Shown here: one piece after another, positions 24,511 to 63,110 of the stretch
Layout of the letters: each line of letters begins with the position of its first letter
How positions within the stretch are numbered: the stretch's first letter is position 1
Assembly: GCF_036365525.1 (NCBI RefSeq)
Contig: NC_090377.1
Span: forward strand, 115,260,519 to 115,324,518
Length of the DNA stretch: 64,000 bases
Direction: 5' to 3'
Source: Heterodontus francisci
Lineage: Eukaryota
Translations under genes and position numbers: made by a program
The notes under the pieces: generated by a model
Told to the model about the DNA's origin: nothing
The model's input: only the letters and a program-made list of their open reading frames with translations
Databases searched by the model: none

Positions 24511-24525
24511 TATTGTATATATTAT

Positions 24526-27162: not shown

Positions 27163-27429
27163 GTGAGTGTGATTAAGCACTGGGGAGTGGGCAAACACTG
27201 GACAGAATAAACATTGGGGAGTGAACAAACAAGGGAGAATTAACACGGGGCGGGGGGCAAACAAGGGAGAATAAACACTGATGGAGGGGACAAACCACTG
27301 ACGGAGGGGGTAAACACTGACGGAGGGAGCAAACACTGGAGGAGGGGAATTGCTGGGGTTATAATGGTTGGAGGGAGTTGCAGGTTATTGCTGGGATTGT
27401 ATTGGTTAGACGGAGTTACAGTGTATTGC

Positions 27430-29200
27430 AGGGGTTGCCTGACTAATCTGATTGAATTTTTTGAGGAAGTGATTAAAGTCCTGGACAGGGGAATGTCTGG
27501 ATGTTATATGGGCTTCCAGAAGACATTTAATGAAGTCCCTCATAAGAGACTGTTAGATAAAGTTGAAGTTCATGGAATTGAAGGCAAATTATTTACCCAA
27601 TTAGGAAATAGTCTAAGCAGAAGGACACCGAGAGTAGGAATAATGGGCAGGTACTCTATTTAGCAGAATGTGACTAGTGGGATCCCACAGGGATCTATGT
27701 TGGGGCATCAACTATACGCCCTATTCATTAACGACTTAGCTGATGGGATGGAAAGCCACATTGTAAGCAGTGTAGATGGAAGCACAACATTCCAAAGAGA
27801 TATTAATAGATTAAGTGAATGGGCAAAACTGTGGCAAATGGATTTTAATGTAGGGAAATGTGAGGTCATCCATTTTGAACCAAAAAGGATAGAACAGGGT
27901 ACTTTCTAAATGGTGAAAAGCTAGAAACATTGGATGTCCAAAGAGAGTTGGGGGATGGCGGGGGGGGGGGGGTGTCCAGGAACAAAGTTCACTAAAATGT
28001 CGTGAACATGTACAGAAAATAATCAAAAAAGCTAATGGAATGCTGACCTTTCTATCTAGAGGAATAGAAAACAAGGGGGTAGCCGTTATGCTTCAGTTAT
28101 ACAAAGCCCTGGTTAGACCACACCTGGAATACTGAGAGCAGTTCTGGGCACCACAATTTAGGAAGGATATATTGGCATTGGAGGGAGTGCAGTGTAGATT
28201 TACCAGGATGATAGCCAGACTGCAAGGGTTAAGTAAGGGGACAGTAGCATAGTGATAATGTTATGGGGCTAATGCTCTGGAGACATTAGTTCAAATCCCT
28301 GGTTAGACCACACCTGGGGGAATTGAAATTCAGTTAATAAATCTGGAATAAAAAGCTCATCTGATTAAGAGCGACCATGCAACTACTGAAGAGTCGTAAA
28401 ATCTGGTTCACTAATGTCCTTTAGGGAATGAAATCTGCCGTCCTTACCCGGTCTGGTATATATGTGACTCCAGGCCCACAGCAATGTAGTTGACTTTTAA
28501 CTGCCCTCTGAAATGGCTGAACGAGCCACTCAGTTGTATCAAACCGCTTCAGCAAAGTTGAATAAGAATAAAACTGGACAGACCATCCGGCATTCATCTA
28601 GGCACCAGAAAACCCCCTCCCTAACGGCACTGTGGGTGTACCTACACCACACAGACTGCAGCGGTTCAAGAAAGAGACAAACCGCCTGCACAAGGGCAGT
28701 TAGGGATGGGCAATACATGTGCGGCCTAGCCAGTGATGCTCACATCCCAGAAACTAATTAAAAAATTACAAGGAGAGATTACACAAGCTAGAGTTGTGTT
28801 CCCTGGAATTTAGAAAGTTAAGGGATGATTTGATCAAAGTTTTCAAGATATTAAGGGGAACCGATAGGGTAGAGAGAGAATCTATTTCTGCTGGTTGGGG
28901 ACTAAGGGGCATAATTTTAAAAATAAATAGAGCTAGATCTTTCAGGAGTGAAATTAGGAAACAATTCTTCATGCAAAAGGAGGTAGAAGTGTGGAATTCT
29001 CTTCCACAAACAGCAGTTGATGCTAAGTTATTTGTTAACTTTAAATCTGAGTTTGATGGATGTTTGTTAACAAAGGTATTTTTATTAAGGGATACGGGGC
29101 AAAGGCAGGTATATGGAGTTAGGTTAGAGATCAGCCATGATCTCATTGAATTGCAGAACAGACTCGAGGGGCTGATTGGCCTATTCCTGTTCCTATGTTA
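27430..29200 (+). mobile_element. CR1 LINE fragment interrupted by a SINE-like element (~28235-28765)
   Basis: 'CLTNLIEFFEEV', 'SGIPQGS', 'WAKLWQMDFNVGKC', 'SLEFRKLRDDL'. Confidence 0.8.
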
Positions 29201-29305
29201 GATTGGCTAGAGGGAGTTACAGGTTATTGAAAAGGTTAGATTGGTTAAAGGGAGTTGGAGGTTAGTGACGATACTGTTGTAATCTCTGTCCGTTCTCATT
29301 CTCAG

Positions 29306-29400
29306 GTGCGTGTGCTCCTTCTGTGCGAAGATCCGATGCCTATCAGAATGTTATCCCAATTTCTGTTCCCTGTCAGGAGCATGGATTTGAGCGCACTCAG
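29306..29400 (+). CDS. CFLAR: c-FLIP coding exon 4 (linker)
   Basis: ctcag| GACAPSVRRSDAYQNVIPISVPCQEHGFERTQ |gtagat; open and phase-compatible. Confidence 0.75.
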
Positions 29401-29728
29401 GTAGATATCTCTGGCAGTTATTAACAGTGTTGAACCAGTAAAGCATTGGGAATGTTCATAAATAAAGTTGAGTTTTGGAGCCTCCCAGCACCTCCTTTTC
29501 ATATTTCGCACCTCACTCAGCCTTTGATAAATCGAGAGGGTGTTTTATGTCAGAACAAGCGCTGACTGGAGTTTGTGTGTATGTGTGGGATTAGCGGGGC
29601 TGGGTCTCTGGTTAGTGAAGTTGTGTGTGTGTTTGTGTAGTTAGCAGGGTGGGTGGGTGGTTATGCATGGTTAGTTTTCTGGTTCTCGCTGTATCTTTAC
29701 GTTGCTGTCATTCTCACGTACCTATCAG

Positions 29729-29828
29729 CAGGTGAGCACTCTACTGCCGGTGTTTCGAAGCTGCAACAAGGATCAGTTATTGAGACAGCACGTTCACTCA
29801 AACTGCTCGAGATCATCAGAGGCCTCAT
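29729..29828 (+). CDS. CFLAR: c-FLIP coding exon 5 (linker)
   Basis: CAGCAG tandem acceptor; QVSTLLPVFRSCNKDQLLRQHVHSNCSRSSEAS; strong donor gtaagt; phase 0 to 1. Confidence 0.65.
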
Positions 29829-30716
29829 GTAAGTAGCGCAAGCTGAATCCTGATATTAATCTCTGTGCCTGGTCTATGGGAGTAGTCACCTTAGAGTCCT
29901 AGAGTCATTTACGACACAGAAGGAGGCCATTTGACCCACCGAGTCCATGCCGGCTCTCCACAGAACTGTGCAGTCAGTTCCTTCTGCCAACTTTTACTAA
30001 CCCTTGTGTTATGGTTAGAATTTGTGCGCAAACTATGCTCTGTTTAGAATTTAAGGCTTGGAGGATTGTGTTGGGATGGTTTAGGACAGAGAACAGGGGG
30101 AACTTTTTTTCATAAAGGGGTGTGAGGCTGTAGAATTCACTTAGTGATTGAAGCAGACACCATGTCAACATTTAATAATGAGTTAGGTAGGGGTAGAAGG
30201 AAAGGGGAGTAAAGGGATATGGGATTAGGATACCGCTCGTGTGGAGTGTAAACACCACCAGGGACTGGTTGGGTTAAACAGCCTGTTTGTGTTGTGATTT
30301 CAAGGTAACTCTTGTGCTCCGACCACTTCTTGGGCCTGGATGAGCACAGTTAAATGGAGTAACTTCAAAACAATGCAGCAGACTGCTGGGCACCTGAAAT
30401 GGGGGAGAATGCCTGATGTTTCAGTTGCGACCCCTGATCAGATCCAGAATGAAGCTGCAGACTTGCTTAGTCTTGGTCTGACCGTTTTTTGACTGACTGA
30501 ACAGTAAATGGTGGGGTTAAGGTGCTTTGGCACTGCCGGCTCTAGTGACTGGAGCAGAGCCTCCCCCTGAAACCTTCGCGCATTCTAGTGCACAGTCTGG
30601 TTTTGTTCCTCATTAGCTGTTTCTTCATATGTATGTGGAGTTTGGGGATTAACTGAAGGTTTAGTTACAGAGAGGGATCAGCTGCCTCACTTGTCGTACC
30701 TGCTTTTACTCTGCAG

Positions 30717-30805
30717 CTGAAGAGCATCATTCAGAGACACTGAGTAACCCAGTGCCCGAGACGGCCCAGGCTTCTGCACCAGGAACAGAGTGTGGTGTGC
30801 AGCAG
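30717..30805 (+). CDS. CFLAR: c-FLIP coding exon 6 (linker)
   Basis: ctgcag| SEEHHSETLSNPVPETAQASAPGTECGVQQ |gtaaca; phase 1 to 0 closes the frame to the next exon. Confidence 0.65.
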
Positions 30806-31864
30806 GTAACAGTTGTCTCACATCGATGGAAGGACATACACACATCTGTGGGCTGGGCGGGGTAGTGACCCAAATTTGGGGAGGGGGTTCATACATTGGG
30901 GTAAAAAGTGCATGTGGAGGGGAAATGATGGAGCAGAGGAAGAAGGGTTGCACAAGGGAGGAGGATTGAATGCGGGGAAGGTGGAGTGGGATTCTGCATG
31001 GCGATCACAATTCCAAGTGGGGAAATGTGCGACCCTGGCAGATGTTGGATGAGGAGAGGATCACCGGCAAATATCCTGTTGAGGCTCCCGTGTCCTTGGG
31101 TTCTGGGACTGGGTACATGAGGTGGCAAGTGTCCTTAGGACCATACCCTCATGAGAGACAGCCCCTCTGGGTGAGGTGGGGAGTGAGGTTCATGCCTCCG
31201 TCCTCTACAGCGTGGAAACAAACCCCTCCACACTCCCCCCGCCTCCAAACGAATTAGGGATGACAGCTTAGGATCTGCTCTGTGATGAATGGTTCATAAA
31301 CATCGCTGTTTAAACCAGTGCTGTGCTGCAGGCAACTGAGCCCACACCGGCCAATCAGCTTCACCGTCTGTTCTCCAGTGTGGTGCTCGAGTATCAGCTC
31401 AGCACTCCCGTCTTCTCAGCCTGACTTTTATGTGCTAGCGCTCTCATCTCTGAGCCAGAAAACGTGTAGGTTCAAGCACTACTCCCAAAGCCTTGAACAC
31501 AAATTCTAGGCTGGCATTCCTCAATGCCAGTACCGAGGGAGTATTGCACTGTTGGAAGTGCCGTCTTTGGGTTGAGACCCAAAACCAAGGCCCTGTCTAC
31601 TGTCTCATACTCAGGCCTAGGGCAGAATTTAGAGACGAGCAGGGGAGTTCTCCCCAGTGTCCTAGCCAGCATTTATCCCTCAACCAACATTGGTAAATCA
31701 GATGACCTGGTCATTTATCTCTTTGGTTTGTGGGAACTCACAGATCCCGACAACCGTGATTGTACTTCAAAAGTAATTGATTGGCTGTGAAGCACTTCCT
31801 GAAGTTGTGAAAGATGTTATAGGGATACAAGTTGTTCTTTGCAACACTGTGCTCTGTGTTACAG

Positions 31865-31943
31865 AATGTGCTGGAGAAGTACAGGATGCAGAGCACGCCC
31901 CTGGGCCTCTGTTTAATCATTGATTGTATTGGAACCGATGCAG
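31865..31943 (+). CDS. CFLAR: c-FLIP coding exon 7 (start of pseudo-caspase domain)
   Basis: NVLEKYRMQSTPLGLCLIIDCIGTDA resembles c-FLIP 'YKMKSKPLGICLIIDCIG'; ttacag|..|gtaaga. Confidence 0.95.
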
Positions 31944-32495
31944 GTAAGATGCTGTAACCTGGTCTGTGTGTGAGTCCATCAGCCAGTTGTAAGCACTGTG
32001 TGTTGTGACAGTGGTGGTAAGTGACCAGTAGCCTGGGCAGGCTCACCAACTATCTGTGCTTAGACAGCATCGTCAACATAATAGAATGTCCCAAAGTGCT
32101 TCAGATGCCAAGAACTGAATGCCAAGTGATGGAGGGAGAAGGTTATGGGCTTGCTGTGGACTAGGGCACCAGATTGGGAAGTGAAGTTCCAAATGTGTCA
32201 AAGTGGGTAGTGGGCCGAAGCTGAGGGAATGGAATTTGAAAGCAGCTAACCCGGACACACACAGCAGATTGACATTTCCTCTGTGGTACTGATGGAACAG
32301 ATATTGTATGAGGGAGGCCCCCCATTACTAGTGACTCCTTATTCATTATCCCATTACTGGTATATCACCACCCCCCACCCCCATCAATTCCCAATGTATT
32401 GACCCCCCCCACCAAATTCCTTGTGTACTGGACACCCCCTCCCTCCATTCCCTGTGTACTGACTCTGTCCTCTTGCTCTCTGTTGGTTTCTTCAG

Positions 32496-33009
32496 ATTTA
32501 TTGAAGGAAACATTTGAGGCTTTGCAGTTCCGGGTTCTCCTCCACCTGTATGTAGAGCTGGATGATCTGAAGCAGATTCTGAGAGACACGTCAGAACGGA
32601 ATGATCTGGCCGCCCTCGACTGCTTCGTGTGTTGCATTGTGAGCCGCGGGACGCCGGACAGCATATTGGCGATCAATGGGAACAGCCTCAGGCTCTCCTT
32701 TGAACAAATCCAGCAGTATTTCAAAGGGCAGAGCTGTCGGCCCCTACTGGGTAAGCCCAGGCTCTTCTTTATTCAGGATTTCCTCACAGCCACGAGCGAC
32801 TCTGACGATGAATTGGAGACAGACACTGCTTGGAGTAATGGAGATGCCATTCAGGCTGACGGTAATGTCTGGGAGGAAGTAGTCCCTCAGGAAGCAGACA
32901 TCCTGTGGAGTTGCTGCCAGGTGTCTGAGCGTCTGCTCTACCAAGCACCCCAGCAACCATCATCCTTCATGCGCACGTTGTCGGAGTGTCTGCGGAAACA
33001 TCAGCACAG
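32496..33009 (+). CDS. CFLAR: c-FLIP coding exon 8 (pseudo-caspase domain)
   Basis: CCIVSRG (catalytic His to Arg) and GKPRLFFIQDFL (catalytic Cys absent); LETD cleavage-like site; EADILWS; ttcag|..|gtgagt. Confidence 0.95.
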
Positions 33010-34499
33010 GTGAGTTCTGGAGGTGTCAGGTACACCAGGTAAACTCCGAGCCCCCGCCACAGGTAAACCTGGAGCCCACGCCACAGACCATCTTGGACAA
33101 TACTGACTGCTCTTCTCTCTGGTCAAACCCCAACCTCTCATTAACTCGGGAGACGATCTCTCTGTCTTTTCTCTTGTACAACAAAATATTGAATGTGGGC
33201 AGCGTACAGCCCCCACCAGGCTCGATAGAAATGGGTCAGATGGTTATTGAGCAGTGCCTGCTCTATTGGTAATAATAACAGAAAGTTCTGGAAATACTCA
33301 GCAGGTCAGACAGCATCTGTGGGGAGAGACACAGTGTTAACAATTACTTGTCCCATTACCTTTTGCCTTACATTATCATCCCTTTTGTTATTTAATCTCT
33401 CCTGTCTTCCCCCCGCCCCCCCACTTGACCTTCACTGTTGTTCTTTCTCCTCTCTCCCTGCCTCTGTACTTGCTTAAAATCCATTACAACTTTTAACTTT
33501 TTCCAGTTCTGATCAAAGGTCACAGACCTGAAACGTTAACTCTGTTTCTGTCTCCACCGATGTTACCTAACTGGCTGAGCTTTTCCAGCATTTTCTGTTT
33601 GATTTCATGTTTCCACATTCTGCAGTATTTTGCTTTTGCAGATTTTATAGGGATTGGTCAGATGGTTATGTGTCTGCATTGCTGGGTTTCCCCATATGTG
33701 GTCTCATTGATGGCACACGCATTGCTCTCCGTCAAGAACTAACCATGTTTTGTAACAAGAAGGGGTCCACTCCCTGTGTGTTCAGCTGGTGTGTGGCCAG
33801 AGGTAGCAAATAATGCAGGTTTATGCCTGGGTTCCTGGCAGTAGTTACAATGCCTTCCTACTGCACCATATTCTCCTGACAAAACCCTCTCCTCCTCGGC
33901 ACTCCCAACAGTCCCATTTACAATCTGAACCGCTCTTTCCAACCGCATTCTGAATGCCTTCATGGGCCTTCCTCTTGCATAACTAGGTAAGAAAGACTTA
34001 GCGATTAGGTTTTAGCATCAAGCCTAAGCAGAGACAAAGATTTCCTGCTGGAAGCACTTGGTGTGAGAAGGGGCAGAATATAATGTTGCCAAGCAGCCTA
34101 CAGGTTTTGTCCTGTAGCCTGAAGCACTCACCACAAACCACACCCATAACTTAACTTGCTCCTCGACTGGGGAAAGGACCTGAATGGATGCTGTCCCTAC
34201 TCCTGACTTCACAACCTCCCCACGTGTGCGCTTGTCCTGAAAGAAAGACGGGAGAGATTTAGTGGTCGACAAGTAAGAAGCTTTGGGGATGTGCATGTCA
34301 AGATCAAATAGTGACACTGGAGTGAGTAGGTGAAGGCAATACTAGTGAGGAGAGGAGGAGATGCAGAGTGTGGCTTAGGAATAGGGGGAGATGGAGTGAA
34401 ATGTGCTGCAGTGAATGGAGGAGAATGCTGGTACTCAGGAGGGTGGGTGCTGAGTGCTGGGACCCCAAGTAATGCAGGTTATGCACAAAAATGATGGAA

Positions 34500-42431: not shown

Positions 42432-42748
42432 ATGGATGACACCAGTTTCCAGTTCCAAGCTCTTCTCAACCACATCAGTGAGAACCTGGGCTCCGATGAA
42501 CTGAAGGCTATGAAGTTTCTTTGCCGAGATTTGTTGAACAGCAACCGGCTTGGAAAGGCTGATTCCGGGCACAAACTCTTCAGCTCTCTGCAAGAGCAGG
42601 GCCTTCTCGATGTGAACGATAACTTCATTGTCGCGGAGCTCCTGTACCGGATCAAACAATTCAAGCTCCTGAAGAAGATGAATTACGACAGACATCAGAT
42701 CTGCAAGGAGCTGAAAGTTCCCGGGAAAGCAAGGATCTCATCATACAG
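42432..42748 (+). CDS. caspase-8/10 coding exon 1 (DED1)
   Basis: MDDTSFQF..LKAMKFLC..AELLYRIKQFKLL..PGKARISSYR; acceptor 42416/42417, donor gtgagt. Confidence 0.93.
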
Positions 42749-43395
42749 GTGAGTTCGATGTTACTCATGGCCGACTGCTAGTTTGCCGACCCTCCTTCAC
42801 ACTCATCTCAGGTGGTTTGCAATGAGGGGAGCTGCTAGGGCTGCCTAAGCTGTGTGACGTCTGGCATTCCCTGCTGCTTCCCACTACAGCTGTCAAATCA
42901 CATGGCCAGCAGTGGTGAGTATTCCCACATCTACAAATGAGCCGATCTCACCAGACACTGAAGCTCCCAATGGAGCAGCGGATTGGGGGAGGGGAACAGG
43001 AGAGAAGGACCACTGTTTAAAACAAAAAGTTACAGTATTTAAACATACCTGTACCTGCCCTGGGAGTGTTTGATGGGACAGTGTAGCGGAAGCTTTCCTC
43101 TGTATCTAACCCTGTGCTGTACCTGCCCTGGAAGTGTTTAATGGGTACAGTGGAAAGGGAGCTTTACTCTGTATCTAATCTGTGCTGCCCTCAGTATGTT
43201 TGATGAGACAGTGAACTGTATGAAAAGTTCTAAACAATATACCTTCACTTTCATTTTTGAAATGGATTTCTAATAGTTGAGTAGTTTTGCACTGAGTCAG
43301 ATTCCTTCTCTGAAGAATTGGAGAGAATTCCATTTGAGCCAGCTTGCTCAGCTGCTGAGACCTGATTTATGTTGTAAACTTGCTTCTAATTGCAG

Positions 43396-43501
43396 ACAGC
43401 TTTTGTTTGAGGTGTCAGAGGATATCACTATGAAGGACTTGGAGACTGTGAAACTTTTCTTGCACAACCATCTATCCAAATCTAAGCTGGAAAGTATCAC
43501 A
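43396..43501 (+). CDS. caspase-8/10 coding exon 2 (DED2 N-half)
   Basis: QLLFEVSEDITMKDLETVKLFLHNHLSKSKLESIT; 106 nt, same size as the CFLAR paralogous exon; donor gtaagt. Confidence 0.92.
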
Positions 43502-43715
43502 GTAAGTGCAATGGGTTGTGTTGTATTTGGTATCTAACACATTCCAGCCTGTATTATCTTGTGTACAGCATAGAATTTTATAGCACAGAGACCACTCAGT
43601 CTATCGCTCCTGCACCTTCTCTGTGAAAGAGCTATCCCCTTAGCTGCATTCCCCTGCCCTTTCCCCATATCTAGTACTTTGTTTTTCACTGAATTTCTTC
43701 TAGAATTTCAAAATT

Positions 43716-44930
43716 AAGAACAAAGAACAAAGAAAATTACAGCACAAGAACAGGCCCTTCGGCCCTCCAAGCCTGCGCCGATCCAGATCCTCTGTCTAAA
43801 CATGTCGCCTATTTTCTAAGGGTCTGTATCTCTTTGCTTCCTGCCCATTCATGTATCTGTCTAGATACATCTTAAAAGACGCTATCGTGCCCGCGTCTAC
43901 CACCTCCGCTGGCAACGCGTTCCAGGCACCCACCACCCTCTGCGTAAAGAACTTTCCACGCATATCCCCCCAAAACTTTTCCCCTCTCACTTTGAACTCG
44001 TGACCCCTAGTAATTGAATCCCCCACTCTAGGAAAAAGCTTCTTGCTATCCACCCTGTCTATACCTCTCATGATTTTGTACACCTCAATTAGGTCCCCCC
44101 TCAACCTCCGTCTTTCTAATGAAAATAATCCTAATCTACTCAACCTCTCTTCATAGCTAGCGCCCTCCATACCAGGCAACATCCTGGTGAACCTCCTCTG
44201 CACCCTCTCCAAAGCATCCACATCCTTTTGGTAATGTGGCGACCAGAACTGCACGCAGTATTCCAAATGTGGCCGAACCAAAGTCTTATACAACTGTAAC
44301 ATGACCTGCCAACCCTTGTACTCAGTACCCCGTCTGATGAAGGAAAGCATGCCGTATGCCTTCTTGACCACTCTATTGACCTGCGTTGCCACCTTCAGGG
44401 AACAATGGACCTGAACACCCAAATCTCTCTGTACATCAATTTTCCCCAGGACTTTTCCATTTACTGTATAGTTCACTCTTGAATTGGATCTTCCAAAATG
44501 CATCACCTCGCATTTGCCCTGATTGAACTCCATCTGCCATTTCTCTGCCCAACTCTCCAATCTATCTATATTCTGCTGTATTCTCTGACAGTCCCCTTCA
44601 CTATCTGCTACTCCACCAATCTTAGTGTCGTCTGCAAACTTGCTAATCAGACCACCTATACTTTCCTCCAAATCATTTATGTATATCACAAACAACAGTG
44701 GTCCCAGCACGGATCCCTGTGGAACACCACTGGTCACACGTCTCCATTTTGAGAAACCCCCTTCCACTGCTACTCTCTGTCTCCTGTTGCCCAGCCAGTT
44801 CTTTATCCATCTCGCTAGTACACCCCGGACCCCATGCGACTTCACTTTCTCCATCAGCCTACCATGGGGAACCTTATCCTTACTGAAGTCCATGTATATG
44901 ACATCTACAGCCCTTCCCTCATCAATCAAC
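43716..44930 (-). mobile_element. Young 5'-truncated CR1 LINE
   Basis: Long open ORF2 C-terminus (SGVPQGSVLGP, FADDTK, RRLRGDL); short tandem tail at ~43716-43735. Confidence 0.92.
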
Positions 44931-45112
44931 ACGCAGATAGGAGGTTTGGTAAACCTTGGGGAGAAGTGTGAAAGATTCCAGGAAGACCACTGGGGTTGGG
45001 GGAATGAGCGAGCCAGGTGGCAGATGCAGTTTAATGTGAAATATATGGAGGAGGAGGAACAAGGAATGAGAGTGTACATTAAATGGAAAGGGACTAGAGG
45101 GTGTGAATGAAC

Positions 45113-46560
45113 AGAGTCATAGAGTTATACAGCACAGAAACAGGCCCTTTGGCCCATCGTGTCTGCGCCGGCCATCAAGCCTATCTATTCTAATCCCATT
45201 TTCCAGCACTTGGCCTGTAGCCTTGTATGCTATAGCGTTTCAAGTGCTCATCTAAATACTTCTTAAAAGTTGTGAGGGTTTCTGCCTCTACCACTCCTTC
45301 AGGCAGTGCGTCCCAGATTCCAACCACCCTCTGGGTGAAAATTTCTTTCCTCAAATCCCCTCTAAACCTCCTGCCCCTTACCTTAAATCTATCCTCAATA
45401 ACCCTTGGCTAATAGAAAAAGTTTCTTCCCATCTACCCTATCTATGCCCCTCATAATTTTGTATACCTCTATCAGGTCTCCTGTCAGCCTTCTCTGCTCT
45501 AAGGAAAATAACCCAAACATGTGCAGTCTCTCTTCATAGCTGAAATGCTCCAGCCCAGGCAACATCCTGGTGAATCTCCTCTGCACCCTCTCCAGTGCAA
45601 TCACATCCTTCCTATAGTGTGGCGACCAGAACTGTACACAGTACTCCAACTGTGGCCTAACTAGCATTTTATACAGCTCCATCATAACCTCCCTGCTCTT
45701 ATATTCTGTGCCTCGGCTAATAAAGGCAAGTGTCCCATATGCCTTCCTAACCATCTTATCTACCTGTGCTGCTGCCTTCAGTGATTTATGGACAAGTACA
45801 CCAAGGTCCCTCTGACCCTCTGTACTTCCTAGGGTCCTACCATCCATTGTATATTCCCTTGCCTTGTTAATCCTCCCAAAATGCATCACCTCACACTTCT
45901 CAGGATTAAACTCCATTTGCCACTGCTCTGTCCATCTTACCAGCCCCTCTATATCGTGCTGTAATCTAAGGCTTTCCTCCTCACTATTTATGACACCACC
46001 AATTTTCGTGTCATCTGCGAACTTACTGATCATACCTCCTATATTCATGTCTAAATCATTAATGTACACTACAAACAGCAAGGTTTCCAGCACCGATCCC
46101 TGCAGTACACCACTAGTCACAGGCTTCCACTCGCAAAAACAACCCTCGACTATCACCCTCTTCCTCTTGCCACTAAGCCAATTTTGGATCCAATTTGCCA
46201 AATTGCCCTGGATCCCATGGGCTCTTACCTTCTTAACCAATCTCCCATGCTGGACCTTATCAAAAGCCTTACTGAAGTCCGTGTAGACTACATCAACTGC
46301 CTTGCCCTCATCTACACATCTAGTCACCTCCTCAAAATTCAATCAAATTTGTCAGACATGATCTCCCCTTGACAAAACCATGCTGACTATCCTTGATTAA
46401 TCCCTGCTTCTCCAAGTGGAGATTAATCCTGTCCCTCAGAATTTTTTCCAGTAGTTTCCCTACCACTGATATTAGACTCACCGGCCTGTAATTACCTGGT
46501 TTATTCCTGCTACCCTTCTTGAATAATGGTACCACATTCACTGCCCTCCCTCTCCTGTAC
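45113..46560 (-). mobile_element. CR1 LINE fragment
   Basis: 315-aa ORF with DFSKAFD, FADDTK; upstream NYRPVSL. Confidence 0.92.
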
Positions 46561-47549
46561 TGGTACCTCTCCTGTGGCCCAAAATAGAGACCCAAAAGTT
46601 CATATACCATAATTCTCTGAAGGGCTGAGTGAAGGGAGATAAAACCATTAACAGAGCAATATCAATTAGGGTTTTTTTGGAGAGTGTAAGAGTTAAGCAG
46701 TAATAAATATATGCCAATTAAATGGTTCGACAAGAGTTTGAGTACTGTGTATAGTTTTTGGTGTCCCATTATAGAAAGGACATTAAGATTATGGAGACAG
46801 TATAATGTGGATTCACTAGGATGATGCCAGGAATGGGAGACTATAGTAATGAGAGACCAGAGACAATTGGACTGTTTCCATCAGAGCAGAGAAAGCTAAG
46901 AGGATATGTAATTGAACTTTTTAAAATTAATGAATGATTTTGTTAGAGTGAATAAGGAAAGACAATTTGTTCTGTTTGAAGAGTCAGTGATGAGGGGTCA
47001 TCAATTTAAAACTGACTTAGAATGAGGAGGGAGGGAGAAGAGCTTCCTTTGTACCGAGGGTTGGTGTATGGGCTTCTTTGCCCCAGGAAGTGGTTGAGGC
47101 AGAAACCATTGCATCTGATCTACATTGACTGTGCAGTCTCAAAGTCGTCAATTTAAAATACTCATCCTCTTGTTCAAATCTTTCCATGACCCTGCCCAGC
47201 CCTATCTCCCAAACCGAAGTCCTACAACTTGTCCTGACTCTCCCTTCCAAACTCTGGCCTTTTCTGCTTCTCTCCTCCCTCTCACTCCGCTATTGGTGGC
47301 TGCGCCTTGAGCTGCCTGGGCCCCAAGTTCCGGAAGTCCCTCCCCACTCCGCCTCTCTATCTCCCTTGTCTCCTTTAACACCATTCACAAAAGCCATCTT
47401 TTAGACCAAGCTTTTGGTTACCCCTCCTACTTTGCTTTTGTACAATCAAAAAATTACTGTTTATATTTAACATTGAGATGTTAATATATCTTTGTCTGAT
47501 TAACCCTTCACTAACAGTTTGTAGTGTAACTGTGATGCCTCTCCCTCAG

Positions 47550-47682
47550 ACAATGCTGGATGCCTTCATTGAAATGGAGAAGGAGGAATTGCTGGAAGAA
47601 GATAATATGGAGCTTCTGAAGGACATCTGCAAGCAACTTGGAGAGTATTTAGTGAAGAAGTTTGATCATTACAGACAGGAAG
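47550..47682 (+). CDS. caspase-8/10 coding exon 3 (DED2 C-half)
   Basis: TMLDAFIEMEKEELLEEDNMELLKDICKQL; ctcag|..|gtaatg. Confidence 0.92.
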
Positions 47683-47929
47683 GTAATGGCCATTGAGCTC
47701 AGCCTAGTGTATGACTGGGGGAAATGTGGAGAATGGTCTGTGAGCATGAGTCTGTGGCCACGACAATGCAAATTACAACACCCCAATTCACTTCCTTAAA
47801 GAGAAGCTCCCTTTCTGCTGTGTGATATAGATTGGTGATTTCATTTAATCGGCCAGCTCTGATTGACTCCCACCTCAATCCTGCCCCCTTATTCCCAGAG
47901 TCCAAACTCTCCAGGGGTAACGAACCACT

Positions 47930-50320
47930 CAGCCCTTTGAGCCTGATCCATCATTCAATAAGTTCATTGGTGAACTGATTACTCCACATTTCCATCTACC
48001 CCCAATAACCTTTCACCCGCTTGCTTATCAATAATCTATCTACCTCTGCCTTAAAAATATTCAAAGACTCTGCTTCCACCGCCTTTTGAGGAAGAGAATT
48101 CTAAAGACTCACGACCCTCTGAGAGAACAAATTTCTCCTCATCTCAGTCTTAAATGGGCGACCCCTTTTTAAACAATGACCCCTAGTTCGAGATTCTCCC
48201 ACAAGGGGAAACATACTTTCCGCATCCACCCTGTCAAGACCCCACAGGATCGTTTATGTTTCAATCAAGTCGCCTCTTACTTTTCTAAATTCCAGCGGAT
48301 ACAAGCCTAGCCTGTCCAATCTTTTCTCATAAGACAGCCTGCCCATTCCAGGTATCAGTCTAATAAACATTCTCTGAACTGCCTCCAATGCATTTACATC
48401 CTTCCTTAAATAAGGAGACCAGTCCTGTACACAGTACTCCAGATGTGGTCTCACCAATGCCCTGTATAACTGAAGCATAACCTCCCTACTTTTGTATTCA
48501 ATTCCCCTCATGATAAACAATAACATTTATTTTATTTATTTAGAGATACAGCATTGAAACAGGCCCTTCGGCCTACTGAGTCTGTGCCAACCAACAACCA
48601 CCCATTTATACTAATCCTACAGTAATCCCATATTCCCTACCACCTACCTACACTAGGGGCAATTTATAATGGCCAATTTACCTATCACCTGCAAGTCTTT
48701 GGTTGTGGGAGGAAACCAGAGCACTCGGCGAAAACCCGCACAGTCACAAGGAGAACTTGCAAACTCCGCACAGGCAGTATCCAGAATTGAACACGGGTCC
48801 CTGGAGCTGTGAGGCTGCGGTGCTAACCACTGCGCCACCCAAATAACATTCTATTAGCTTTCCTAATTACTTGCTGTACCTGCATACTAACCTTTTGCAA
48901 TTCATGCATTAGGACACCCAGATCCCTCTGTATTTCAGAGCTCTGCAATCTCTCACCATTTAGATAATATGCTTTTTTAAAATTCTTCCTGCCAAAGTGG
49001 ACAATTTCCCACTTTCCCACTTTATGCTCCATGTGCCAGGTCTTTGCCCACTCACTTATCCTATCTATATACCTTTGTGGTCCCCTTATACCTTCTTCAC
49101 AAGTTACTTTCCTACCTATCTTTGTGTCATCAGCAAATTTAGCAACCATACCTTGGGTCCCTTCATCTAAGTCATTGATATAAATTGTGAAAATTTGAGG
49201 CCCCAGCACAGATCCCTGTGGCACACCACTCGTTACATCTTGCCAAACAGAAAATGACCCATTTATACCTACCCTCTGTTTCCTGTTAGCCAGCCAATCT
49301 TCTGTCCATGCCAATATGTTACCCCCTACACTATAAACTTTTATTTTCTGCAATAACCTTTGATGTGGCACCTTATCAAATGCCTTCTGGAAATCTAAGT
49401 ACAATACATCTACTGGTTCCCCTTTATCCACAGCACATGTAACTCCCTCAAAGAACTCCAGTAAATTGGTTAAACATGATTTCCCTTTCACAAAACCATG
49501 TTGACTCTGCCTGATTACCTTGATTTTTTCTAAATGCCCTGCTATAACGTCTTTAATAATAGCTTCTAACATTTTCCCTGAGACAGATGTTAAGCTAACT
49601 GGCCTGTAGTTTCCTGCATTCTGTCTTCCTCCCTTTTTGAATAAACAAGTTACATTTGCTATTTTCCAATCTAACGGAACTTTTCCCGAATCTAGGGAAT
49701 TTTGGAAAATTAAAACTAACACATCAACTATCTCACTAGCCACTTCTTTTAACACTCTGGGATGAAGTCCATCAGGACCCGGGGACTTGCAGCCCGCAGC
49801 TCCAACAATTTGTTCAGTACCACTTCCCTGGTGATTGTAATTTTCTTGAGTTCCTCTCTCCCTTCCATTTCCCGAATTACACCTAATACTGGGATGTTAC
49901 TTGTATCATCAATAGTGAAGACCGATGCAAGATATCTGTTCAATTCATTTGTCATCTTCTAATTATCCATTATTAATTCCCCAGACTCATTTTCTATAGG
50001 ACCAATGCTCACTTTGTTAACCCTTTTCTTTTTAAAATATCTATAGAAGCTCTTACTATCTGTTTTTATATTTCTAGCTTGCTTTCTTTTGTACTGTAAT
50101 TTTACCTTCTTTATCAATCTTTTAGTCATTCTTTGCTGTTTTTTATATTCTGTCCAATTCTCTGACCGACCTTCCATCTTTGCGCATTATAGGCTTTTTC
50201 TTTAAGTTTGATATTATCTTTAACTGTTTTAGTTAACCACGGATGGTGGGTCCCACCCGTGGAATTTTTCTTTCTCATTGAAATGTATCTATTCTGCGTA
50301 TTCTGAAATATCCCCTTAAA
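47930..50320 (-). mobile_element. CR1 LINE fragment split by a V-SINE
   Basis: 310-aa RT ORF (NYRPVSL, DFQKAFD, FADDTK) continuing at 48254-48526. Confidence 0.92.
48528..48841 (-). mobile_element. HE1-like V-SINE with 9-bp TSD
   Basis: TSD AATAACATT at 48519-48527 and 48842-48850; (TAAA)n tail. Confidence 0.88.
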
Positions 50321-50384
50321 TGGTAGTTGGGGGGGGGGGGGGTGGTTTCTCAGTTGGCCTCAGTTCCAGCTTGCAGGGGGCAGC

Positions 50385-51140
50385 GGCCAGTGGATGGTGG
50401 GAGGGTAAGCGGATGGTGGTCAGTAGGCAGCGGGTAGTGGATGGTGGTCAGTAGGGGGCAGTGGATGGCGGTCAGTAGGCAGGGGGCAGTGGATGGTAGG
50501 TAGCGGATGGCGGTCAGTGGGGAGCAGGCAGTGGATGGTGGTCAGTAGGCAGTGAGCAGTGGATGGTGGGCAGGTTAAGCGGATGGCAGTCAGTAGGCAG
50601 GGAGCAGGTTAAATGGATGGCGGTCAGTAGGCAGCGGGTAGTGGATGGTGGGCAGGTTTGGATGGCAGTCAGTAGGCAGTGAACAGTGGATGGTGGGCAG
50701 GTTAAGCGGATGGTGGTCAGCGGGCAGTGGATGGTGGGCAGGTTAAGCGGATGGTGGTCAGTAGGCAGTGAGCACTGGATGGTGAGCAGGTTAAGCGGAT
50801 GGTGGTCAGCAGGCAGTGGATGCTGAGCAGGTTAAGCGGATGGTGGTCAGCAGGCAGTGGATGGTGAGCAGGTTAAGCGGATGGTAGTCAACGGGCAGTG
50901 GATGGTGAGCAGGTTAAGCAGATGGTAGTCAACGGGCAGTGGATGGTGGGCAGGTTAAGCGGATGGTAGTCAACGGGCAGTGGATGCTGAGCAGGTTAAG
51001 CGATGGTGGTCAGCAGGCAGTGGATGGTGGGCAGGTTAAGCGATGGTGGTCAGCGGGCAGTGGATGGTGGGCAGGGTAAGCGGATGGTGGTCAGCAGGCA
51101 GGGCAGGTGGCTCATGGTGAGTGCTGGACAGTGGGCAGGG
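50385..51140. repeat. ~40-bp degenerate minisatellite
   Basis: gtggatggtgggcaggttaagcggatggtggtcagcaggca units. Confidence 0.9.
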
Positions 51141-51691
51141 TCGTCCACGAGACGGGCAGTGGTTCCAACCTTCCGTTCAAAATGGCTAAAGAGAGCAACA
51201 AAGATCAGTGACAGCTCACAACAGACCCCGGCACTCTACTCCTCTCCTACAAACATATGATTTTGGAGCAGGAGTAGGCCATTCAGCCCCTTCGAGCCTG
51301 CTTTGCCATTTAACAAGATCATGGCTGATCTGATAATGGCCTCAACTCCACTTTCCTACTATTGCCTACCCCCAATACCCTTAGAATCCCTTGTTAGTCA
51401 AGAATTTATCTACCTCAGCCTCCACCCCTCCCCGCCCCTTTCCTGTCCTCTTCCCTCTCCTCTCCTTTCTCCTCTCCAGGGCCCAGATGGGCTCTATACA
51501 GATCTAGTATTTGGGGCCGTTCCTTCTGTGTCTGCACTGTATTCGACTTCTGGAAATCAATGGGTGCTGGGTCTGACTGTAGGAACAACTACTCCCCACT
51601 CGAGATCCCCTACCCTAGCACAGATGGATAGTTTATATCTAAACTTGTAACTCTGCGGCCCTGTTGCTGATCTGTTCCTTTATTAATTCAG

Positions 51692-51783
51692 CAAGCGGGC
51701 AGGGTGAGAAATCTTCTCCGGTGCTGACTCCGACTCCCGAGACTGCCCCTTATGTTGTGATTCCTCGAGAGCCACCATATGTT
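51692..51783 (+). CDS. caspase-8/10 linker exon 4
   Basis: ttcag| ASGQGEKSSPVLTPTPETAPYVVIPREPPYV |gtcagt; phase 1 to 0. Confidence 0.6.
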
Positions 51784-51854
51784 GTCAGTATGCCTCATGC
51801 TCGTTGTGCTGTTAAGAATGGCTCATGTTCAGGGTGCACAATCTGACTAAGGGG

Positions 51855-52455
51855 ACAGGCACCAACCATGAGTTCAGTGAGAACCTTTATAAAGCTCTGG
51901 TTTGTCCCAGACTGGAGTATTGTGCCCATTTCTGGTAACCACACTTTAGGAAGGATCTGAGGGTCCTTGGGAGGGTGGAGAGGAGATTTACCAGAATGAT
52001 TCCAGGGATGAGGAATTTTAGCTACAAGGTTAGGTTGGAGAAGCTGGGGTTGCAATCCCTGGAGCAAAGGAGATTGAGGGGAGATTTGATAGAAGTGTAC
52101 AAGATTATGATAGGCTTAGATAAGATAGACAAATAAAAGCTGTTTCCATTAGTTGATGGTACCAGGATTAGGGGCCATCGATTTGTGGTTCTGGGCAAGA
52201 GATACATAGGGGATGTGAGGAAGACCTTTTTATGCAGCGAGTGGTAATGGCTGGAACTCGCTGTCCAGGATGGTGGTGGAAGTGAAGATGATGAATGATT
52301 TCAAAAGGAAACTGGATGAACACTTGAGGGAAATAAACTTGCAGGGCTATGGGGATAGAGTGGGGGAATGGGACTGATTGGATTGTTCTGCAGAGAGACA
52401 GCATGGATTTTATGGGCCAAATGGCCGCTTCCTGTGCTGTAATGACTCTGAGAGG
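51855..52455 (+). mobile_element. CR1 LINE 3' fragment
   Basis: LEYC..FW.PH..RRLRGDLIEVYK motifs. Confidence 0.8.
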
Positions 52456-52602
52456 AGGAGGCAATATGAGAAGAGGAGAGCTTTGGGGAGGAAATGTGGT
52501 TGGAGGTGGAGGGAGTGGTTGGGTGGGGGGATGGGGATAATGAGGGTAGGGACTGGTAAGGGATGCAAGATGCTAACAACAGGCCCCTCCCATGCACTCT
52601 AT

Positions 52603-53700
52603 GGGAGCTGGGATAACCCTTCTCCAATAATAGGATTCTCCCCCTCATTGTGAGCTGGGATAAACCCACTCCAAAAATAGGATTCTCCCCCTCATTGTGA
52701 GCTGGGATAACCCTTCTCCAATAATAGGATTCTCCCCCTCATTGTGAGCTGGGATAAACCCACTCCAATAATAGGATCCTCCCCCTCATTGGGAGCTGGG
52801 ATAAACCCACTCCAATAATAGGATTCTCCCCCTCATTGGGAGCTGGGATAAACCCACTCCAATAATAGGATCCTCCCCCTCATTGGGAGCTGGGATAAAC
52901 CCACTCCAATAATAGGATCCTCCCCCTCATTGGGAGCTGGGATAAACCCACTCCAATAATAGGATCCTCCCCCTCATTGGGAGCTGGGATAAACCCACTC
53001 CAATAATAGGATCCTCCCCCTCATTGGGAGCTGGGATAAACCCACTCCAATAATAGGATCCTCCCCTCATTGGGAGCTGGGATAAACCCACTCCAATAAT
53101 AGGATCCTCCCCCTCATTGGGAGCTGGGATAAACCCACTCCAATAATAGGATCCTCCCCCTCATTGGGAGCTGGGATAAACCCACTCCAATAATAGGATC
53201 CTCCCCCTCATTGGGAGCTGGGATAAACCCACTCCAATAATAGGATCCTCCCCCTCATTGGGAGCTGGGATAAACCCACTCCAATAATAGGATCCTCCCC
53301 CTCATTGGGAGCTGGGATAAACCCACTCCAATAATAGGATCCTCCCCCTCATTGGGAGCTGGGATAAACCCACTCCAATAATAGGATCCTCCCCCTCATT
53401 GGGAGCTGGGATAAACCCACTCCAATAATAGGATCCTCCCCTCATTGGGAGCTGGGATAAACCCACTCCAATAATAGGATCCTCCCCCTCATTGGGAGCT
53501 GGGATAAACCCACTCCAATAATAGGATCCTCCCCCTCATTGGGAGCTGGGATAAACCCACTCCAATAATAGGATTCTCCCCCTCATTGGGAGCTGGGATA
53601 AACCCACTCCAATAATAGGATTCTCCCCCTCATTGGGAGCTGGGATAAACCCACTCCAATAATAGGATTCTCCCCCTCATTGGGAGCTGGGATAACCCCA
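52603..53700. repeat. 47-bp minisatellite, ~23 near-identical copies
   Basis: gggagctgggataaacccactccaataataggatcctccccctcatt. Confidence 0.97.
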
Positions 53701-54029
53701 CCCCGAATAAATGCATCTCTGTCACCATCCTTTGACTGTATGAATGGAGACACAGAGGCCCATGATCAGTGTCTGCCAGGGGACAGGGTGTTGGAGAGGG
53801 TACTGCAGAGAGACCCTGTCCCATGTTTGAGTTCTACTGATAGGTACTGGAGCAGGCAGAGGATGGAAGACTGAGAGTGCTGATGGATACTGTGCAGCCA
53901 GAGTGTTACACTGCCCTTTGCTCTTTCACCTGCCACCTGACCAGCTCTGTGTATCCAAAGTTTTCAGTTGATACTTTAGGATTGACAGGGAACCTATCCT
54001 CAGACATAATCGCTTTCTGTTCAATGCAG

Positions 54030-54080
54030 GAATGGCCGAGACCCCTCAGGTTGCTCGAACCCCATAATTCATTATCGGCG
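54030..54080 (+). CDS. caspase-8/10 linker exon 5 (symmetric, possibly skippable)
   Basis: tgcag| EWPRPLRLLEPHNSLSA |gtattg; 51 nt, weak donor. Confidence 0.4.
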
Positions 54081-54720
54081 GTATTGAGACAACTTGCTGG
54101 TGCGTTTAATTACACTACCGGGATTCACTTGGTAGCTTTTATCTTTCCTCTGGTCTTAAGTCTCAAGGGCAATTAGGGATGAGCAACAAATGCTGGCTTT
54201 GCCCGTGATGCTCACATCCCATGAACAAATTAAAAAAAAGACAAGTGACATGCCGTCAAATTACAAAAAAAGATACAATTAACAGATATTGGGTAGAGTG
54301 TGAATCTTGTGTTCCATCCGATCCTGCGTGTTTCCTGTCAGTCAAGTTTAGTTAAAATTGCATCCTGTGTGTGTGTGCCTGAGTGTGACTTTGTGTGTGT
54401 GCCTGAGTGTGACTGTGTGTGTGTGTGTGACTTTGTGACTGTGTGTTTGTGACTGTGTGAGTCTCTAAGTGTGTGTTTATGACTGAGTGTGTGTGCATTT
54501 CCGTGTGAGTGTGTGTGTTGTGTTTGTGAGTGTGTTGGTGGCTTGGCTGTAATGCCCCCAGGTGCGAATAGCTCATTTCTTGCATACAGAGGTTAATGAA
54601 AATCATTTTAACAAGTTGTCCTTCTGCCCCCTACCCTGGTTAGTTGACAGTGACAGACTGGGTCTGCAGACTCCACCTCTAACCTACCCTCTGTTTTATG
54701 TTCATATTTCAGTCTCACAG

Positions 54721-54769
54721 GATCAGCAAGCTCCTGTATCGGATTCACATAGCAACATCACGATTCAAG
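54721..54769 (+). CDS. caspase-8/10 linker exon 6
   Basis: cacag| DQQAPVSDSHSNITIQ G|gtaacc; phase 0 to 1. Confidence 0.6.
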
Positions 54770-55354
54770 GTAACCAAATCCATCTGGAGAGGGGAGAGAG
54801 ATGGACAGTGTTGGAGAGAAGAGAGAGTGAATAGACAGAGAGCTAGGGAGATGCTGAGAGGCAGAAAGCAGATGGTGAAAGCGAGATTGAATGAAAGAGG
54901 AAGGCACTGAGTGACAGAGGAGATGGAGCAAGAGTGAGTGAGTGTGGGAGACTGGGAAAGAGAGAGAAAGGTGAGAAGGCGAGAAAAAGGTAGATGATGT
55001 GTTGGAAAGTAATGAATGTGACTCCCATTTCTAAAAAAAAAAGACAAGCGACATGCCTTCAATTACAGACGAGAGTCTCGCCCTGACTGTATGGAAGGTG
55101 TTTGAGAATATGATGAGGGATCAATGAGGATGTATTGGGAATGGCAGTGTCTGATTGGTGAGAGCCAGCTAGGGTTAGGAGGCGCAGGTCAGGTCTGCCC
55201 AGTGTCCTAGGGTAAGGAGCTCACGTGTCTGATGGCTGAAGGGTGAGGCAGTGGATGGTATCAGTTGCGTTTCAGGAAGGCATTAGATGGAGTGCCACAT
55301 AACAGACTGATTGATAGGGTACATGCCCCTGTGATAGATGGCAAAATATTCATC

Positions 55355-55850
55355 TGATTGAACAGCTTGGGAGGAATGCAGAGGAGATTCACTAGAATGA
55401 TACCCGGTTTCCAAGAGATAGATTATGAGGAGAGATGGCATAAACTAGTCTTGTATTCCCTGGAATATGAATGGTTAAGGGATGATTTTATTGAGGTTTT
55501 CAGGATTTTGATGGGAATTGAAAGTGTAGACAGTGAGAAATATTTTCCACAGGTGGGGCAGTACAGCACAGAGGACATAACCTTAAAATTAGAGCCAGGC
55601 CATTCGGGAGAGAAGTTAGGAAACATTTCTTCACAGTAAGGGTGGCAGAAGTGTGGAACTCTCTCCCATGAAAAGTAGATGCTGGCTCAATTAATAATTT
55701 TAAATCTGACATTGATAGATTTTTGCTAGACCAGAGCATTAAGGGATATGAAGTCAAGGTGGGGGATGGAGTTAAAATACAGATCATGTCATGATCTCAT
55801 TGAATGGCAGAATAGGCTTGAAGGGCTGAATGGCCTTTTGCTGTCCCTGT
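55355..55850 (+). mobile_element. CR1 LINE 3' fragment
   Basis: 'QRRFTRMIPG..YEER..LYSLE'. Confidence 0.8.
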
Positions 55851-56324
55851 GTAAAAAATGTTTTGTGGGGAGGTATCAGGTGGAAACCAATTACCAGTGG
55901 AGACTTCTTGGTCTGGGCGCTGATTGTAATCTCTATAAAGTGACCGAGAGGCTGAAATATTTTCCTCTGATTGTAGGCGACTCCAAACTGGGTGCTGTGC
56001 TGCTCAAATATAATTCAAATTTGTATGGGTCCAGAGAACTTGGATCCAGGAAAGTTCTGCTGGGTGCAGCATTTCAAGGACAAAGAGACAGAATTTAAAA
56101 TTAAAATTGCCTAAAGAAAATTGGGAATTTTTAAAGGCCAGGATTCCGGTATGCTTTATTTAACAGCTTTCTGCCACCTTCAAAGATTTGTGTATGTATA
56201 CCCACAGGTCTTTCTGCTCCTGCACCCTGTTTAAAATTACACCATTTAATTGATATGGCAATGATGTGAATGCAGTCGGAAATGCAGCATTTGCCGATAA
56301 CCTACCCCTTTTGCTTTTTTGCAG

Positions 56325-56389
56325 ATATGAGGGAGCAGGATGGCAATACTTTCCCCAGCCAGAGTATCACCATGAACTCTCAGCTCCAG
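56325..56389 (+). CDS. caspase-8/10 linker exon 7
   Basis: Strong T tract + gcag; DMREQDGNTFPSQSITMNSQLQ |gtggga; phase 1 to 0. Confidence 0.65.
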
Positions 56390-57036
56390 GTGGGAGTAAT
56401 TCACGCACCTGCACCGTTTACTGATTCTCTGCTCTCGTCTAGTCTTTCCTGTTTAGTTTTTTTCATTCAGCTCCTAAAAATTAGAAATACTGATGGAATG
56501 TTAGCTTTTATCAGAAGGGTGCGAGTTACAACAGTGTGGAGGTTATGTTAGTTGTATAGAATTCTAATTAGACCCCATCTGGAGCACTGTGCTCAGTTCA
56601 CTCAGGAAGGATATATTGGCTTTGTAGTGCAGATTCACCAGACTGATACTGGAGCTCGAACGGTTAAATTATGAGGGCAGGTTGCACAGGCTGTCCCCTT
56701 GAATGTAGAAGATTAAGGGTTGATCTCATTGAGGTGTTTAAGCTAATAGAGAGATATTATATTCTCTGGTGGGGGAGTCTAGAATAGGGGGGCATTTTAC
56801 ACAGAGGGTCCTGAAAATCTGGAACTCGCTCTCCTTAAAACCTGTTCATGCTGGGGCTCAATTGAAAATTTCCAAACTGAGAGATTGATTGATTTTTGTT
56901 GGATTAGGGGATTAAGAGATACAGAACCAAGACACACTAGGTGTGTGTGACTGATACTTAACAAACGGAGAATGTTGGGGACTGGATGCAGTGGTAATTT
57001 TCGATATTGTATCTCACACTCTCTTATTTGCAACAG

Positions 57037-57145
57037 AGTCTGGGCAGGTACAAAATGGAGAGTAACCCAAGGGGCTACTGTGTCATAATTAACAACAGTA
57101 ACTTCAAAGAGATGCCAGAACGCAGAGGGACTAACGTGGATGCAG
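57037..57145 (+). CDS. caspase-8/10 exon 8 (large subunit start)
   Basis: SLGRYKMESNPRGYCVIINNSNFKEMPERRGTNVDA. Confidence 0.95.
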
Positions 57146-57251: not shown

Positions 57252-58128
57252 AGCGACTCGAGAGGGTCTTCAGGTGGCTGACGTTCCAGGTGATCCGGTT
57301 CGAGAACCTTACGGCTGAAGAGATGCGAGAGAAAATGAACTGTTACCGGGAGAAGGATCACACGTCCCATGATTGCTTTATCTGCTGCATCCTGACCCAC
57401 GGCGAGAGGGGTGTGATGTGTGGCACAGATGGAGAGCAGATCCCCATTCAAGAAATCACCTCCTTATTCTCGGCCTCACAATGCCACTCCCTCCGGCAAA
57501 AGCCCAAGCTCTTCTTCATCCAGGCTTGTCAGGGCTCCAAAAAACAGGACGGTGTTGGCATCGAGTCCAGCAGGGTTGAGACCGAGTCCAGCAGGGTTGA
57601 GACCGAGTCCAGCAGGGTTGAGACCGAGTCCAGCAGGGTTGGGAGCGAGTCCAGCAGGGTTGGGGCCGAGCCCAGCAGCGTTGGGGCCGAGCCCAGCAGC
57701 GTTGGGGCCGAGCCCAGCAGCGTTGGGACCGAGCCCAGCAGGGTTGAGACCGAGCCCAGCAGAGTTGAGACAGTGCCCAGCAGCGTTGAGACCGAGCCCA
57801 GCAGGGTTGAGACAGTGCCCAGCAGCGTTGAGACCGAGCCCAGCAGCGTTGGGACCGAGCCCAGCAGCGTTGGGACCGAGCCCAGCAGCGTTGGGACCGA
57901 GCCCAGCAGCGTTGGGACCGAGCCCAGCAGCATTGGGACCGAGCCCAGCAGCGTCAGCCCCATGCTGGAGTCGGATGCAGTCAGCAGCACGAGTGCCACC
58001 ATCCCTGATGAGGCAGACTTCCTCCTGGGCATGGCAACAGTGGAGGGATACGTCTCATTCCGACATATTCAACAGGGCACCTGGTATATCCAATCGCTAT
58101 GCGAGAACCTGGAGAAACACTGCCCCAG
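57252..58128 (+). CDS. caspase-8/10 exon 9 (catalytic THG/QACQG, repeat-expanded linker, small subunit start)
   Basis: DCFICCILTHG, KPKLFFIQACQG, IPDEADFLLGMATV, GTWYIQSLC; cacag|..|gtacca. Confidence 0.95.
57563..57961 (+). repeat. In-frame 21-bp coding minisatellite (19 units)
   Basis: Unit gagcccagcagcgttgggacc and variants encoding E(P/S)S(S/R)V(G/E)(T/A). Confidence 0.97.
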
Positions 58129-58864: not shown

Positions 58865-59024
58865 CGAGGACCTGCTGAGCATTCTGACCATCGTCAACCG
58901 GGATGTCAGTGTGAAAAAAGACAAGAAAGACAAGACTCAAATGCCGCAGCCCCGTTACACCCTCAGGGAGAAACTTTATTTCCCCGTGACTCAAAGCTTC
59001 AGTAATTTCATCAACTGCTCATAG
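58865..59024 (+). CDS. caspase-8/10 last coding exon
   Basis: [43 protein letters not shown]. Confidence 0.94.
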
Positions 59025-63085: not shown

Positions 63086-63110
63086 TTGGCTGGGACACTG
63101 TGACACTCAC

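Follow-up and report, generated by a model that had tools for sequence, protein, structure and literature searches.

A gene of the caspase-8/10 family in the horn shark Heterodontus francisci carries, in the linker between its large and small catalytic subunits, a coding minisatellite whose unit, as read from alignment of the DNA with itself and with orthologues, is a tandem copy of the first autoprocessing site (site 1), site 1 itself having been lost. A periodic expansion at the same place marks all eight galeomorph sharks compared, and we consider it rather probable, though well short of certain, that the array is tolerated minisatellite filler in an otherwise normal enzyme whose large subunit ends in a disordered tail. 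Neither long inter-subunit linkers nor linkers with a single site are new, and the array is already contained in the RefSeq protein; the element that appears undescribed is a coding minisatellite shared by a whole clade and derived from an inactivated site 1 in caspase-8/10, no description of a shark caspase linker array having been found in the open-licence literature. Coordinates below refer to the window, that is, the whole 64,000-nucleotide stretch of DNA that was analysed.

The array-bearing caspase gene

Judged by its sequence, the horn shark gene is intact and belongs to the caspase-8/10 family of DED caspases, in agreement with the original prediction. All 607 residues of the RefSeq 'caspase-8-like isoform X2' of Heterodontus francisci were placed on eight exons within the window, and this protein matches the array-bearing exon at 100% over its full length, array included. 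The upstream coding exons (42432..57145, + strand; codon-match ranges 42432-42749, 43397-43501, 47550-47681, 54712-54768, 56324-56389 and 57037-57144) encode two DEDs, a prodomain linker with an EQD/G motif and the start of the large subunit. They are followed by the array-bearing exon (57252..58128, + strand, with AG...GT bounds), which encodes the bulk of the large subunit together with the linker array and the small-subunit start, and by the last coding exon (58865..59024, + strand), which supplies the small-subunit end and a TAG stop. Pfam domains are arranged as tandem DEDs (PF01335 twice, E 2e-42) and then a caspase domain, Peptidase_C14 (PF00656, E 1e-65). The catalytic residues are all kept, His312 in the THG motif (57398..57400, + strand) and Cys355 in QACQG (57521..57535, + strand), and together with the S1-pocket arginines they are intact in 8/8 galeomorphs and two other sharks. 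The best relative of solved structure is caspase-8, both by sequence (E 1e-46) and by fold. A weak match (E 0.009) to the Pristiophorus prodomain linker at 51694-51768 (+ strand) may be an alternative exon outside isoform X2.

Directly after QACQG-SKKQDGVGI the reading frame enters 19 heptads (57554..57952, + strand; consensus VGTEPSS) and leaves them at MLESD/A and an intact small subunit. Tandem Repeats Finder (TRF) recovered the same array as a 21-bp period at 57554-57954 with 19.1 copies, 92% matches, 0% indels and a score of 578, so that program and translation agree with the 19 in-frame units first proposed, heptad by heptad. The translated exon confirms that the array holds no Asp, stop or frameshift. 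Its self-identity at lag 7 is 0.82, a value equalled by 0/2000 shuffles, and its units stand head to tail and in frame with local homogenisation (one H. francisci allele), bringing the linker to 155 aa. The figure of about 133 added residues needs correction: the net gain over Pristiophorus and Heptranchias is exactly 126 aa (18 x 7), because one of the 19 units is the ancestral copy. A cryptic intron inside the array was considered and rejected, a crude consensus scan of 57540-57975 having found no donor-like (at least 4/7) or acceptor-like (at least 12/18 pyrimidines) site.

The register of the unit follows from its flanks and from the DNA itself. The insertion sits precisely between the conserved L2 stem and the second cleavage site (site 2), with ungapped flanks that are 9/13 and 14/23 identical to Pristiophorus. 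Counted from QACQG, the first unit, VGIESSR, aligns without gaps to VGIEAES of Pristiophorus and VVIEADS of Heptranchias, that is, to P6-P1' of site 1. Set against the consensus of the remaining 18 units, it agrees at 17/21 bases when read this way, whereas the six alternative registers give 4-8/21. Because of the ungapped orthologue alignment and the 17/21-base match, we equate the T-E of the unit with the P4-P3 I-E of site 1, with the P1 Asp changed to Ser. The derivation of the unit from the first autoprocessing site was thus rightly proposed; its supposed Glu in place of Asp was not, since the Glu of the unit is the P3 Glu and Ser occupies P1. DNA self-alignment and orthologue flanks ruled out the register on which that substitution depended. 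The former P1 position is now Ser369 (57569..57571, + strand), which is Asp in 217/218 non-galeomorph sequences.

With Ser at position 369 and an array devoid of Asp, site 2, LESD/A at Asp504 (57965..57979, + strand), remains as the sole canonical site of the linker, as had been claimed. The LExD/A motif is present in 19/19 chondrichthyans, including 8/8 galeomorphs, and the distance from site 2 to the small-subunit IPDEADF is equal in the shark gene and in caspase-8. A cut here would expose Ala-Val (AVSS at 57977-57988; AVST, AVCS, AVNT or AVSA in relatives), which may be a loose resemblance to an IAP-binding N-terminus or simply the small P1' residue favoured by caspases.

Linker expansion across galeomorph sharks

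Two homologue searches with 8000 candidates each contributed their best 120 of 246 and best 120 of 356 matches, giving 240 proteins; the linker was measured from QACxG to IPxxADF in 226 of these (14 records left out), using only the last caspase domain in fused models. Among the matches listed, it spans 23-37 aa in 218 non-galeomorph sequences and 29-30 aa in 210 of the 218, a set that comes mostly from birds and mammals, is non-independent, and includes Heptranchias, Pristiophorus, six named rays, two skate-like records and Callorhinchus. The galeomorph linkers measure 47 aa in Scyliorhinus, 59 in Rhincodon, 61 in Carcharodon, 66 in Hemiscyllium, 73 in Stegostoma, 91 in Cetorhinus, 155 in Heterodontus and 270 in Mustelus, and each of the eight extensions shows periodicity at lag 7 (p 0 to 0.0085 against 2000 shuffles). 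The 7-residue-periodic expansion is thus no peculiarity of the horn shark but is common to 8/8 galeomorphs, a point that the original prediction missed. The P1 Asp of site 1 follows the same division, being kept in 0/8 galeomorphs. In well-preserved arrays the best unit consensus is VGTEPSS, VGVDPSS, AGIQSSS or VGVEPSG, while units are degenerate in carpet sharks and the catshark; their number runs from ~4 in the catshark through 19 in Heterodontus to ~35 in Mustelus. Linkers differ about six-fold in length, and their units are not conserved in sequence, even within orders (Scyliorhinus 47 aa versus Mustelus 270; Rhincodon 59 versus Stegostoma 73).

In a tree built with the linker removed (40 rows; five bird/turtle rows left out), the eight galeomorphs form one clade (96/86) with Heterodontus basal, and these sequences are most simply explained by an expansion that arose once, in the ancestor of galeomorphs. 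The available text of a phylogenomic preprint places the split of the galeomorph orders in the Early-Middle Jurassic (10.64898/2026.02.13.705779). Among the caspase-8/10 sequences retrieved, a near-fixed linker length and a near-fixed site-1 Asp are thus both broken by a whole shark superorder. This leaves a natural series of linkers of 29, 47, 59, 61, 66, 73, 91, 155 and 270 aa attached to closely related catalytic domains, with which one can test whether linker length alone explains the need for cleavage in caspase-8/10 homodimers as opposed to caspase-9. If the array is inert, it offers a clean case of a coding minisatellite that has persisted since the Jurassic while its sequence turned over.

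Within the horn shark array, variation looks neutral-like. Among its 11 distinct units, 11 codon alleles are derived; 9 of these are non-synonymous and 2 synonymous, where 23% synonymous would be expected, though a test on ~11 alleles has little power. Neighbouring units are more alike than shuffled ones (1.44 versus 2.57 differences, p=0.0001), the pattern that ordinary turnover of minisatellites produces. Of single-base changes, 6.0% would yield Asp and 2.2% a stop, so that with ~11 derived alleles the probability of seeing no Asp is ~0.5 and that of seeing no stop ~0.8; since both are expected by chance, their absence is uninformative, and the lack of Asp was rejected as a signature of selection. 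Pro at P1' blocks caspase cleavage, and 6/7 of the Asp residues in extensions across species precede Pro. We give this pattern no weight because it reflects about three events and arises partly from the E-P structure of the unit. With length and unit sequence both variable and unit alleles neutral-like, neutral slippage, which had been offered as the alternative to function, fits best.

Pristiophorus japonicus has IEAE/S at site 1, a true Glu-for-Asp change on a normal 29-aa linker and the sole such case among the 218 non-galeomorphs. At P2 of site 2, all 11 non-galeomorph chondrichthyans have Glu (LEED) and 6/8 galeomorphs have Ser, Gln or Pro, a change that possibly made for a better site after the loss of site 1. 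In carpet sharks a new VETD/P or VEPD/P has arisen immediately ahead of site 2; it resembles the caspase-8 motif but has Pro behind it.

Readings of the lengthened linker

Under the reading we favour, a tolerated array in a single-site linker, the P1 Asp of site 1 would have been lost to Ser in the galeomorph ancestor, the 21-bp stretch spanning the site would have become a tandem repeat, and the array would then have expanded and homogenised separately in each lineage. The enzyme would dimerise via its DEDs and cut itself once, at LESD/A (Asp504), freeing L2' as usual. The array would stay behind as a disordered acidic tail, giving a large subunit of ~32 kDa rather than ~18-19 kDa beside a small subunit of 11.8 kDa; these masses place the start of the large subunit at residue 211, which presumes cleavage at the EQD/G prodomain site by homology to human caspase-8. 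Array length and sequence would matter little because the tail sits in a stretch that two-site caspases discard. The disorder originally suggested is borne out as a prediction, with AlphaFold (50-sequence alignment) assigning pLDDT <50 over most of residues 357-515 and modelling the caspase core normally.

Such a linker has close counterparts. Caspase-8 is activated by dimerisation, and the homodimer needs self-cleavage for apoptosis whereas the c-FLIP heterodimer does not; the self-cleavage sites are Asp374/Asp384 in human and Asp387 alone in mouse (PMC13545259), whose single-site linker resembles that of the horn shark. The human linker, of ~30 aa, carries two sites, VETD/S and LEMD, in contrast to the 155 aa built in the shark from tandem copies of a dead site 1. 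By a crude motif split, both sites are present in 95/101 caspase-8-type sequences, while caspase-10-type sequences keep site 1 in 106/106 and the site-2 Asp in 8/106. Single-site linkers are thus common, given that so few caspase-10-type sequences have site 2, and galeomorphs reverse the tetrapod caspase-10-type arrangement. That site 2 is kept in 8/8 galeomorphs suggests that cleavage is still under selection. Further in favour of a tolerated array, Pristiophorus has Glu at site 1 without an array, and tandem repeats make up 21% of the window. Against it stand the near-fixed linker length (29-30 aa in 210/218) and site-1 Asp (217/218), whose joint change is unusual, and the failure of any of the eight galeomorphs to return to the single-unit state since the Jurassic (minimum 47 aa). 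In oysters, moreover, the long linker of a caspase has a measurable inhibitory effect on activation (PMC11543851), so that such linkers need not be inert.

The strongest competing explanation, which we regard as possible but unlikely, is that the long linker is functional: either the uncleaved homodimer would order its active site or site 2 would be reached in cis, with a minimum length selected and site 1 dispensable. It would account for linkers of at least 47 aa in 8/8 galeomorphs, 0/8 of which keep site 1. Models of procaspase-8 in which the intact linker blocks active-site formation are consistent with it (10.1101/2023.01.04.522766, accessible part), as is the statement, in the accessible part of a review, that caspase-9 activity without cleavage is 'probably' due to its long linker (PMC5410359). 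Caspase-9 is likewise an initiator with a longer linker for which that source proposes cleavage-independent activity, but it has a CARD prodomain and a non-repetitive linker and belongs to another subfamily, so the analogy is possible and functional only. In the extended form of this explanation, the array would let an uncleaved homodimer be active, lifting in galeomorphs the self-cleavage rule established for apoptosis by mouse caspase-8, and copy number (~4-35) would tune the threshold between species and perhaps between individuals, a scenario we find doubtful. Site 2, however, is undecayed in every galeomorph (8/8), and the short arrays are degenerate and may persist simply by being unable to slip. 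The association between array and site-1 loss, too, counts as a single event, because both changes map to one branch.

The last point and the undecayed site 2 also weigh against an array acting as an inhibitory or phosphorylation-controlled brake on activation, as in oyster caspase-3/6/7, which we hold to be improbable. Its precedent is the faster activation of an oyster effector caspase on deletion of a 165-aa linker, in the portion of the study available (PMC11543851). As far as that portion goes, bivalve and gastropod caspase-3/6/7 likewise carry lineage-specific long linkers (63-286 aa) of low between-species similarity, and inhibition and a conserved AKT site are shown there; these are effector caspases, however, with a conserved phosphosite, and the description in that portion mentions no tandem repeats (PMC11543851). 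The long-linker effects in caspase-9 and oyster therefore lend support to cleavage-independent activity and to a brake, respectively. Composition would also suit a brake, with Ser+Thr at 15-37% of the extensions and 8 CK2-type and 7 RxxS/T motifs in the Heterodontus array. Yet the other galeomorphs have 0-2 CK2-type sites each; S/T-P sites reach 17 in Mustelus against 0-2 in the remaining species, and net charges across the eight lie anywhere between -1 and -17. A motif scan of the extensions found no kinase motif common to the eight galeomorphs, so the phosphorylation switch first suggested goes unsupported, and a conserved phospho-switch was rejected as a candidate.

Slightly less probable still is that the VETE/S copies of Heterodontus have come to serve as a new, slower first site at which the tail is trimmed off the large subunit, an idea compatible with the array being filler. 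The three copies (57575..57631, + strand; P1 Glu at residues 374, 381 and 388) lie at distances of 5-19 residues from where site 1 used to be and match the human caspase-8 VETD/S except at P1. The prediction was correct that three are present, but they are secondary look-alikes rather than copies of site 1 as such: VETE/S arises from a later change, where the GGG>GAG allele two codons upstream (8/19 units) coincides with TCC (5/19 units), and it occurs in 1/8 galeomorphs, Heterodontus alone. Both its restriction to one galeomorph and its origin in the meeting of two common alleles count against this idea. Caspases-3, -6 and -7 do cut after Glu, more slowly, according to the accessible text of PMC7225963, but this evidence concerns effector caspases, not caspase-8/10.

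Misassembly of the array, or its removal by splicing, is scarcely credible, even though the short-fragment search gave 20 matches of at most 32% query coverage with no short fragment or other allele spanning the array among them: the in-frame expansion stands at the same place in annotated proteins of seven other species, hence in eight altogether, which makes an artefact very unlikely and the array genuine, and the array shows 11 distinct, ordered unit types with no splice-like site in the crude scan of 57540-57975.

Gene identity and genomic surroundings

CFLAR (c-FLIP) lies directly upstream on the same strand (exons within 18307..33013, + strand); the interval up to the caspase, which runs from 42432, contains no further DED or caspase match. 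Its product is likely the heterodimer partner of the shark caspase. Tetrapod caspase-10 likewise adjoins CFLAR, lying between Cflar and Casp8 (PMC13545259), an order given also in the accessible part of a second source (PMC2779465). The shark clade groups with caspase-10 in both trees, at support 94/87 (40 rows) and 98/90 (28 rows), and with CASP8 in neither; the trees place the gene nearer to caspase-10 than to caspase-8, the name in its RefSeq label. Like caspase-8, on the other hand, it has two DEDs and Peptidase_C14, its closest solved structures are those of caspase-8, and its site 2 is placed alike. AU tests, run with a long-branched c-FLIP outgroup, rejected neither sharks with CASP8/18 (p 0.081) nor sharks outside both (p 0.076). 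Because these two alternatives stand, descent from the caspase-10 lineage is favoured, not proven. One gene per chondrichthyan species appeared among the matches listed (best 120 of 246 and best 120 of 356), where a paralogue could rank lower, and the window extends 5 kb past the caspase gene. Shark genes labelled 'caspase-8' should accordingly be used with caution, as they may be caspase-10, with an odd-sized large subunit.

The CFLAR gene at 18307-33013 encodes a pseudo-active site in which Arg replaces His and IQDF replaces IQAC; its own linker carries an LETD/T motif. In Cetorhinus, where the gene order is the same, the gene model fuses CFLAR and caspase and contains a repeated ~60-aa stretch in the CFLAR part; the fusion is probably an annotation artefact. 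Reverse-transcriptase fragments of LINE type lie on the minus strand in introns of CFLAR and the caspase, at 24922-26727, 43799-46342 and 48826-49896. The window further holds large non-coding tandem arrays at 10232-15681, 40566-42282, 52602-53710 and 61181-63094, comprising a G-rich 5-kb tract, a 61-63-bp array, and arrays of 47 bp x 23.6 and 35 bp x 55.7.
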